A DNA stretch of 64,000 nucleotides, from the NCBI RefSeq assembly GCF_022846255.1, contig NZ_AP025682.1; one strand, 5' to 3'. This document shows positions 51,667-54,600 of the stretch, one piece after another. How positions within the stretch are numbered: position 1 is the stretch's first letter; each line of letters opens with the position of its first letter. This DNA is from Escherichia coli. Its GTDB lineage: Bacteria; Pseudomonadota; Gammaproteobacteria; Enterobacterales; Enterobacteriaceae. The position numbers are program-made.

Positions 51667-54600
51667 TAACCGGATTGCACCACCAGACGAGCACGCCGCC
51701 AGTGCCGGTGGCCTTGCCGTTGGCATACTGGGGGCACTGAAAGCCGCAGGTGGACTGTGGTTTGGCTGGAGCGGTAAAACAGGGAATGAGGATCAGCCGC
51801 TAAAAAAGGTGAAAAAGGGTAACATTACGTGGGCCTCTTTTAACCTCAGCGAACAGGACCTTGACGAATACTACAACAAATTCTCCAATGCCGTTCTCTG
51901 GCCCGCTTTTCATTATCGGCTCGATCTGGTGCAATTTCAGCGTCCTGCCTGGGATGGCTATCTACGCGTAAATGCGTTGCTGGCAGATAAATTACTGCCG
52001 CTGTTGCAAGACGATGACATTATCTGGATCCACGATTATCACCTGTTGCCCTTTGCGCATGAATTACGCAAACGGGGCGTGAATAATCGCATTGGTTTCT
52101 TTCTGCATATTCCTTTCCCGACACCGGAAATCTTCAACGCGCTGCCGACATATGACACCTTGCTTGAACAGCTTTGTGATTATGATTTGCTGGGTTTCCA
52201 GACGGAGAACGATCGTCTGGCGTTCCTGGATTGCCTTTCTAACCTGACCCGCGTCACGACACGTAGCGCAAAAAGCCATACGGCCTGCGGCAAAGCGTTT
52301 CGAACGGAAGTTTACCCGATCGGCATTGAGCCGAAAGAAATAGCGAAACAGGCTGCCGGTCCACTGCCGCCAAAACTGGCGCAACTCAAAGCAGAACTGA
52401 AAAACGTACAAAATATCTTTTCTGTCGAACGACTGGATTATTCCAAAGGTTTGCCGGAGCGTTTTCTCGCCTATGAAGCGTTACTGGAAAAATATCCGCA
52501 ACATCACGGTAAAATTCGTTATACCCAGATCGCGCCAACGTCTCGTGGTGATGTGCAAGCCTATCAGGATATTCGTCATCAGCTCGAAAATGAAGCCGGA
52601 CGAATTAATGGTAAATATGGGCAATTAGGCTGGACGCCGCTTTATTATTTGAATCAGCATTTTGACCGTAAATTACTGATGAAAATATTCCGCTACTCTG
52701 ACGTGGGCTTAGTGACGCCACTGCGTGACGGGATGAACCTGGTGGCAAAAGAGTATGTTGCCGCTCAGGACCCAGCCAACCCGGGCGTTCTTGTTCTTTC
52801 GCAATTTGCGGGAGCGGCAAACGAGTTAACGTCGGCGTTAATTGTTAATCCCTACGATCGTGACGAAGTTGCAGCTGCGCTGGATCGTGCATTGACTATG
52901 TCGCTGGCGGAACGTATTTCCCGTCATGCAGAAATGCTGGACGTTATCGTGAAAAACGATATTAACCACTGGCAGGAGTGCTTCATTAGCGACCTAAAGC
53001 AGATAGTTCTGCGAAGCGCGGAAAGCCAGCAGCGCGATAAAGTTGCTACCTTTCCTAAACTTGCGTAGGTGCGGTTAACCTCCCGTAAGTGGAACTAACA
53101 GCACATCGACCTCACTTGAGGTAATCACTCTTTTCGCCGAGCAGGATGCTCGCGAAAAGAAACTGTGATTGTGATTACCGCAAATCACCAAATCGAAATG
53201 ATGTTTGCGACAAACTTCCAGAATATGTTCGCTTAACTCACCGTAGGCAATAAACGTCTTGTCAACGGGATACCCCGCATCCTGAATTAACTTATCAAGA
53301 AAGCTTTGCGTTTCTTCCTGCATCACGTTGCGTAAATCTTCAAGCATCGGCGCAGCTAATTGATTGTACATTTCCGGGTCGGAAGCGAGAGTAATTAAAC
53401 TGATGTGTCCTTTTACTGGCCTGGCGATAGATACCGCTTTTGCCAGCAGTTGCTGACTTTCCGGTGTAACCGCAACGGCGACAAGAATATTGCTATAGCT
53501 CATAACCTGTTCCTTATTCTGTGAACTTCAGGTGACATTAAAGCTTTACTCCTAATGGAGAAACGACGCAATCCCAACTCAGTTAAACAGGTAAATATTA
53601 GTCTGGTCATTAGTAAATACAATTAATTAATTGCTCTTGGTTATCATATGATTTCAACTGTATTTATAAGAAAATAATGTACTGATTCCCCATATTGAAC
53701 AAGTGGTTAATATATGTAAAACATTTTATTAACATTAGGTTGATTGTTGCCTTTCTTTGTAGTTAATTAGTTTGTTGTGCGGTAAGTGTTTGTTTAAAAA
53801 TGGCTTATCTGGTATTGCATTAAAGCGATTATTTATAGCAGATGATTATTTACGGTGAGTTATTTTAACTGTGCGCAACATCCCATTTCGATTATTCCTG
53901 TTTCATTTTTGCTTGCCAGTGTAGCGAAAAATTTTTTAACAGATTGAAATACACCCAAAACAAAAGTATGACTTATACATTTATGTTAAGTAATTGAGCG
54001 TTTTGTGTGATCTGCATCACACATTATTGAAAATCGCAGCCCCCCTCCGTTGTATGTGCGTGTAGTGACGAGTACAGTTGCGTCGATTTAGGAAAAATCT
54101 TAGATAAGTGTAAAGACCCCCTTCTATTTGTAAGGACTTATTAAACCAAAAAGGTGGGTCTGCTTATTGCAGCTTATCGCAACTATTCTAATGCTAATTA
54201 TTTTTTACCGGGGCTTCCCGGCGACATCACGGGGTGCGGTGAGACCGCATAAAAATAAAGTTGGTTATTCTGGGTGGGAATAATGCATACCTCCGAGTTG
54301 CTGAAACACATTTATGACATCAACTTGTCATATTTACTACTTGCACAGCGTCTGATTGTTCAGGACAAAGCGTCCGCTATGTTTCGTCTCGGCATAAATG
54401 AAGAAATGGCGACAACGTTAGCGGCACTGACTCTTCCGCAAATGGTTAAGCTGGCAGAAACCAATCAACTGGTTTGTCACTTCCGTTTTGACAGCCACCA
54501 GACGATTACTCAGTTGACGCAAGATTCCCGCGTTGACGATCTCCAGCAAATTCATACCGGCATCATGCTCTCAACACGCTTGCTGAATGATGTTAATCAG

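Follow-up and report, generated by a model that had tools for sequence, protein, structure and literature searches.

Whether flhDC of a given Escherichia coli strain is controlled by its own upstream region, or by an insertion sequence (IS) that has landed in that region, is the question raised by this locus. In K-12 stocks, IS1 or IS5 elements lying at -100 to -320 part the promoter from upstream repression and raise motility. The mechanism has been treated in a number of papers (PMC11237407; PMC1174868; PMC5493358; PMC6246914; PMC9600491). The window analysed here is the whole stretch of 64,000 nucleotides, and all positions are counted from its first letter. The locus is made up of the following features.

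53075-53503, minus strand: uspC, universal stress protein C (142 aa), from the ORF call and the uspC annotation in all matching genomes.
53504-54282, no strand: uspC-flhD intergenic regulatory region, 779 bp, AT-rich and uninterrupted, from the ORF bounds and the alignment.
54283-54633, plus strand: flhD coding sequence (116 aa), from the ORF call; the protein is identical to that of MG1655 and LF82.
54636-55214, plus strand: flhC coding sequence (192 aa), from the ORF call; the protein is identical to that of MG1655 and LF82.

The genes uspC and flhD are divergent, and the ORFs together with the annotation of homologous loci place otsBA on one side and flhC-motAB-cheAW on the other, with motA, motB, and cheA following flhC. 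The homologous loci in MG1655, LF82, and MS 21-1 carry the same annotation. Translation of flhD starts at the ATG at 54283, and an in-frame GTG is found at 54274. In 200-bp windows, the GC content of the intergenic region is 0.27-0.42 as against about 0.44-0.52 in the flanking genes. A sequence-only reading made before the present analysis had described an AT-rich region of about 780 bp between 53504 and 54282, and these coordinates have proved exact, as has the base composition. The sole ORF of at least 40 aa that touches the region is a 40-aa frame with a TTG start at 53500-53622. With 40 aa as the greatest ORF length in the region, there is no room for a transposase.

The most direct evidence on an insertion comes from collinearity. 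The 779-bp region aligns without gaps to its counterparts in LF82, UPEC132, MS 21-1, EC958 (ST131), O157:H7, O104:H21, Z30, and APEC 789, all of which are 779 bp long. The alignment with MG1655 has a single structural difference, which is a gap of 776 bp opening after 53977. The corresponding block of MG1655 consists of the annotated IS1H (768 bp) and an 8-bp target duplication, CATAAATG, which flanks IS1H on both sides. Once IS1H and the 8 bp are removed, the MG1655 region is also 779 bp long and collinear with the window. No extra DNA of about 0.77-1.3 kb over the uninterrupted length was found in comparison with nine uninterrupted references. The sole exception to the gap-free alignment is the copy of P276M (NZ_CP044293.1), which is only 88.8% identical. 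Many indels of one base are strewn over this copy, and a gap of 8 bp deprives its CRP (cAMP receptor protein) site of the first base. These indels look like long-read assembly errors rather than biology.

The search for the elements themselves gave the same result. The sequences of IS1, IS2, IS3, IS5, IS30, IS186, and IS911 were taken from the MG1655 annotation. When the 25-nt ends of these seven elements were compared with the region, the best agreement was 13-16 of 25 positions, and the maxima reached in shuffled sequences were 15-18 of 25. BLAST of the seven full-length elements against the whole 64 kb returned chance matches only (14-22 nt, E 0.14-0.87), with no IS homology anywhere in the window at E <0.1. 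Within the region there is no transposase ORF, and no target-site duplication was found of either the 4 bp typical of IS5 or the 8-9 bp of IS1. Short repeats are not above chance, the direct ones numbering 7 (shuffles 13.0 +/- 5.6) and the inverted ones 13 (shuffles 11.1 +/- 5.5). Across complete E. coli genomes (5421-5422 of 5426), the number of copies of the region per genome has a median of 1 and a maximum of 2, and this single-copy state argues that no multicopy element lies inside it. Every test (collinearity, termini, homology, and repeats) thus supports the earlier statement that no IS element is present here. Its further statement, that neither IS-like inverted repeats nor a transposase ORF can be seen, agrees with termini and repeats at the shuffle level and with the lack of any ORF longer than 40 aa. 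The alignment that it had proposed, to the IS1/IS5/IS3 termini and to the flhD upstream region of MG1655, has been run, and terminal repeats and a duplication are absent from 53504-54282.

One repeat was considered as a target duplication in its own right. The two copies of the 13-nt direct repeat D1 (53509 and 54260; 85% identity) enclose almost all of the region. D1 was rejected because such pairs are fewer than in shuffled sequences, and because virtually all E. coli genomes contain the enclosed DNA.

Three of the insertion sites used in K-12 could be placed on the window, and all of them are unoccupied. Their positions come from publications that cite them, with a cross-check against genome sequences.

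53767-53770, no strand: TTAG, unoccupied IS5 target of K-12 stocks, on which two published distances converge.
53978-53985, no strand: CATTTATG, unoccupied target of the MG1655 IS1, placed by the alignment gap that opens after 53977.
53986-53989, no strand: TTAA, unoccupied IS5 target of DH10B/NEB10-beta and other K-12 stocks, placed by the junction sequences.

For the first site, one paper puts an IS5 with a TTAG duplication 319 bp before the transcription start (PMC1174868) and another puts an IS5 516 bp before the start codon (PMC11237407); both distances fall on the TTAG at 53767-53770. The second site, CATTTATG, is single-copy in the window and identical in nine compared strains. For the third, the IS5 junctions of NEB10-beta read TTAA|GGAAGGTGCG...CGCACCTTCC|TTAA, and this TTAA, the equivalent of 53986-53989, lies at the position -96 to -99 given for IS5 by Barker et al., as quoted in PMC1174868. 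Each of the three targets occurs in one undoubled copy, and the remaining uninterrupted strains are alike in this. YTAR tetranucleotides (IS5-type targets) number 22 in the region, which makes it as susceptible to IS5 as any other copy.

Hence what lies between uspC and flhDC is almost certainly the normal E. coli intergenic region without interruption, in the form usual for B2-type strains, both extraintestinal and commensal. The regulatory features that could be placed on this region are given below.

53850-53878, no strand: probable PapX/FocX repressor site TTACGGTGAGTTATTTTAACTGTGCGCAA, from its distance to the GTG and its sequence.
54006-54021, no strand: CRP site TGTGATCTGCATCACA, read from the sequence, its centre at -71.5 computed from the start at 54085.
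54050-54078, plus strand: putative flhD core promoter (-35 TTGTAT at 54050-54055, 17-bp spacer, -10 TACAGT at 54073-54078), placed by its position upstream of the transferred start.
54085-54282, plus strand: 5' untranslated leader of flhD, 198 nt, its start transferred from MG1655.
54085-54304, minus strand: predicted equivalent of the AsflhD antisense RNA, from MG1655 b4839 and PMC9600491, moved by alignment.

The transcription start of flhD at about 54085 was transferred from MG1655, and the two IS5 distances agree with it (516 - 319 = 197). The stretch at 54006-54021 is a perfect CRP palindrome, TGTGA-N6-TCACA. At 54021 the window has A, as do eight strains of several lineages; K-12 MG1655 alone has G, which breaks the TCACA half-site. 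Apart from this one K-12 base, 54000-54099 is the same in the nine compared strains, and 54050-54099 is invariant in the alignment of 11 sequences. The leader has five differences from K-12, all of them common to LF82, UPEC132, and EC958. Activation of flhDC by CRP is well established (Soutourina 1999, as cited in PMC5493358). A scan for consensus promoters and terminators gave two matches on the minus strand (shuffle mean 3.8) and none on the plus strand, the hexamers of flhD being too weak. With Rfam searched at a permissive E of up to 1, no family matched 52800-55600, the AsflhD equivalent included.

TTACGGTGAGTTATTTTAACTGTGCGCAA has its centre at 53864, which puts it 410 bp away from the GTG at 54274. 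Its sequence is presumably that of the PapX site published by Reiss and Mobley in 2011. It is found exactly in five of the nine compared strains, namely LF82, MS 21-1, UPEC132 (B2-type), O157:H7, and Z30, and is one base off in each of EC958, O104:H21, K-12, and APEC789. A 29-bp PapX repressor site has been described 410 bp upstream of the translational start (PMC6246914). The upstream tract is known to bind RcsAB, OmpR, LrhA, H-NS, Fur, IHF, MatA, and YjjQ (PMC5493358), and the leader is a target of CsrA and the small RNAs McaS, OmrA/B, ArcZ, and OxyS (PMC9600491).

Taken together, these features outline a circuit in which the flhD promoter would be activated by CRP from the site centred at -71.5. 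The long AT-rich upstream tract would be bound by H-NS, LrhA, OmpR, and RcsAB, which repress or silence, and by PapX where a strain has papX. CsrA and a number of small RNAs would act on the 198-nt leader. With insertions absent, expression of flhDC would follow this full native circuit of repression and activation. Occupancy of the sites and wild-type motility would be expected from the literature on K-12 and CFT073.

The allele was further compared with its closest relatives. The clinical isolates UPEC132, B1172, and N50 each differ from the region by one SNP (99.9% identity), and LF82 by two. The B2-type relatives as a group (UPEC132, LF82, EC958, MS 21-1) have 99.4-99.9% identity and other lineages 95-97%, without indels. 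Against K-12 the identity is 95.1%, with 38 substitutions, of which 31 fall within 53581-53932. The variable columns among the 11 sequences number 5-17 per 50 bp in 53600-54049 and 2-4 per 50 bp in the leader. Every intergenic allele of the window is shared with at least one other sequence in this alignment. FlhD and FlhC show no amino-acid difference (100% identity) from those of MG1655 and LF82. It is therefore reasonable to infer that the cis-regulation of flhDC is native, given a region one SNP away from three clinical isolates, the lack of a private allele, an invariant core promoter, and identical FlhD and FlhC.

The flanking genes have some changes of their own. UspC differs from its K-12 counterpart at five amino acids and from that of LF82 at one (D142G), which is due to a change at 53079 and affects the last residue. 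At 53010, a C to T change replaces Pro by Leu in OtsA, 19 residues from the C-terminus. Both changes are absent from all four comparison strains, and so are the synonymous changes at 53059 and 53411. The best complete-genome match of 52990-53430 is 99.5%.

An uninterrupted region may also be regulated in a non-native manner. A point mutation within it, or a change in a regulator encoded elsewhere (lrhA, hns, clpX, papX), could raise or abolish motility, as has been seen in K-12 and Keio strains after evolution. In place of an IS insertion, both point mutations upstream of flhDC and lrhA or clpX mutations have been documented (PMC11237407; PMC8652233), and LrhA, H-NS, PapX/FocX, and ClpXP are trans-acting regulators that all lie outside the window. 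In addition, the exact haplotype of T at 53628 and C at 53688 is found in none of the 5426 complete genomes, the best match being 99.9%. However, each of the two bases is natural, 53628T occurring in MS 21-1 and 53688C in UPEC132 and MG1655, and the two positions, about 400-460 bp ahead of the transcription start, belong to the stretch where the region varies most. The promoter, the CRP site, and the leader are moreover identical to those of LF82, UPEC132, and EC958. An altered regulation of this kind is accordingly quite improbable for the present strain.

The far-upstream stretch has a variability of its own. Between 53600 and 54049 it is about 9% diverged from K-12, yet the length of 779 bp is fixed across lineages and indels are absent. 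The 38 substitutions against K-12 could alter the binding of upstream regulators. It is a slender chance that T 53628 with C 53688 marks a lineage-specific change in the upstream regulation of uspC/flhDC, and that variability at a fixed length reflects diversifying selection on regulator binding instead of drift and recombination.

How common the uninterrupted state is can be judged from the complete genomes. Among the 5421-5422 genomes that match, 5270-5271 contain at least 80% of the query at a single location. When 60 genomes were sampled at even spacing, 56 had the region uninterrupted. The other four are an IS1 strain of the MG1655 type, NEB10-beta carrying IS5, BS-04 with its piece of a degraded IS1, and a genome with a deletion. 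Two matches to the uspC-flhD region sit on plasmid-labelled records in the complete-genome collection. With the K-12 sequence as the query, at least 17 laboratory K-12 genomes are uninterrupted at 100% identity to K-12. These include DH5alpha, NEB 5-alpha, C600, J53, derivatives of DH1, HST04, RR1, and some MG1655 stocks. ATCC stocks of MG1655 have been reported as roughly 50:50 mixtures (PMC1174868). Insertions are not confined to laboratory strains, as IS30 in the uspC-flhDC region marks a natural clade from wastewater that belongs to phylogroup A (Zhi et al., 2016; PMC5007776).

The fragment of BS-04 (NZ_CP172819.1, broiler stool) occupies 887-1425 of that record. It is a degraded IS1-like sequence of 539 bp, 77% identical to IS1 and retaining the right end only, and it directly follows CATTTATG, the insertion point of the MG1655 IS1. 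Decay of an element, kinship with K-12, or poor assembly could each account for it. Decayed remnants are thus known at this locus, but that the window itself once carried an insertion, since excised or decayed to a trace that still alters regulation (a doubled target, for instance, or a small piece of one end), is scarcely credible, since no base has been gained or lost relative to nine strains, TTAG, CATTTATG, and TTAA occur once each, and the IS termini match at the shuffle level.

What the uninterrupted state tells about the origin of the strain is a separate matter. The sequence-only reading had taken the absence of an IS as a sign of a non-laboratory lineage. This argument fails in view of the uninterrupted laboratory K-12 genomes, the sampled genomes, and the natural clade with IS30 described above. 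By default, E. coli has no IS upstream of flhDC. This is the state of about 95% of complete genomes, many laboratory K-12 strains among them, and for this reason it is unusable as evidence of a non-laboratory origin; the divergence of the sequence serves instead. A narrower form of the claim, that the strain is not K-12, does stand, on the divergence from K-12 relative to the B2-type strains and on the deletion of tap. K-12 derivatives are 100% identical to one another at this locus, and the window lacks such near-identity to them (95.1%). The sequence, then, places the strain outside K-12, but is no guide to whether it has a laboratory past.

The deletion of tap, which is shared with the closest genome, MS 21-1, also points to an origin outside K-12. 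In the window, tar ends at 61450 and cheR starts at 61742, which leaves 291 bp between them (61451-61741). The tap gene of K-12 takes up about 1.6 kb, and the spacing hence implies that this chemoreceptor gene has been deleted. At the position of tap, MS 21-1 has an annotated pseudogene remnant of 152 bp, a frameshifted 'Tar ligand binding domain'.

A longer stretch was also compared. For the 25 kb at 39001-64000, the best match among the 5426 complete genomes is 99.2%, which indicates a lineage unrepresented among the complete genomes searched. The 212 differences from that match cluster in patches at 42-44, 47-49, 50-51, and 60-62 kb. Such a patchy distribution over 25 kb suggests the usual recombination mosaic.

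There is nothing new at this locus: the observation is ordinary, and the mechanism is textbook and already known. For the annotator, it means that flhDC can be taken to stand under its normal promoter, without the insertion-driven hypermotility that confounds K-12 work.

Three known systems can be set beside the window. The uspC-IS30-flhDC marker of wastewater strains concerns the same intergenic region and illustrates that the locus accepts insertions in natural populations too (PMC5007776). Those strains belong to phylogroup A and carry an IS30 of 1.2 kb; the window, in contrast, has no IS30 terminus or homology.

The uspC-flhDC locus of K-12 MG1655 resembles the window in its genes and architecture, and in being collinear over 779 bp once IS1H and 8 bp are taken out. 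K-12 stocks differ from the window in bearing IS1 at 53977/53978 (MG1655) or IS5 at TTAA (NEB10-beta) or TTAG (others). K-12 also differs by its 38 substitutions, which include the CRP half-site base (G in K-12, A in the window) and one base of the PapX site.

The B2-type uspC-flhDC locus (UPEC132, LF82/NRG857c, EC958 ST131, MS 21-1) differs from the window by 1-5 SNPs, each allele of which is seen in other strains, although the exact combination is absent from the 5426 genomes. It has the same flanks, the same length of 779 bp, and the same CRP site, promoter, leader, and FlhD/FlhC.
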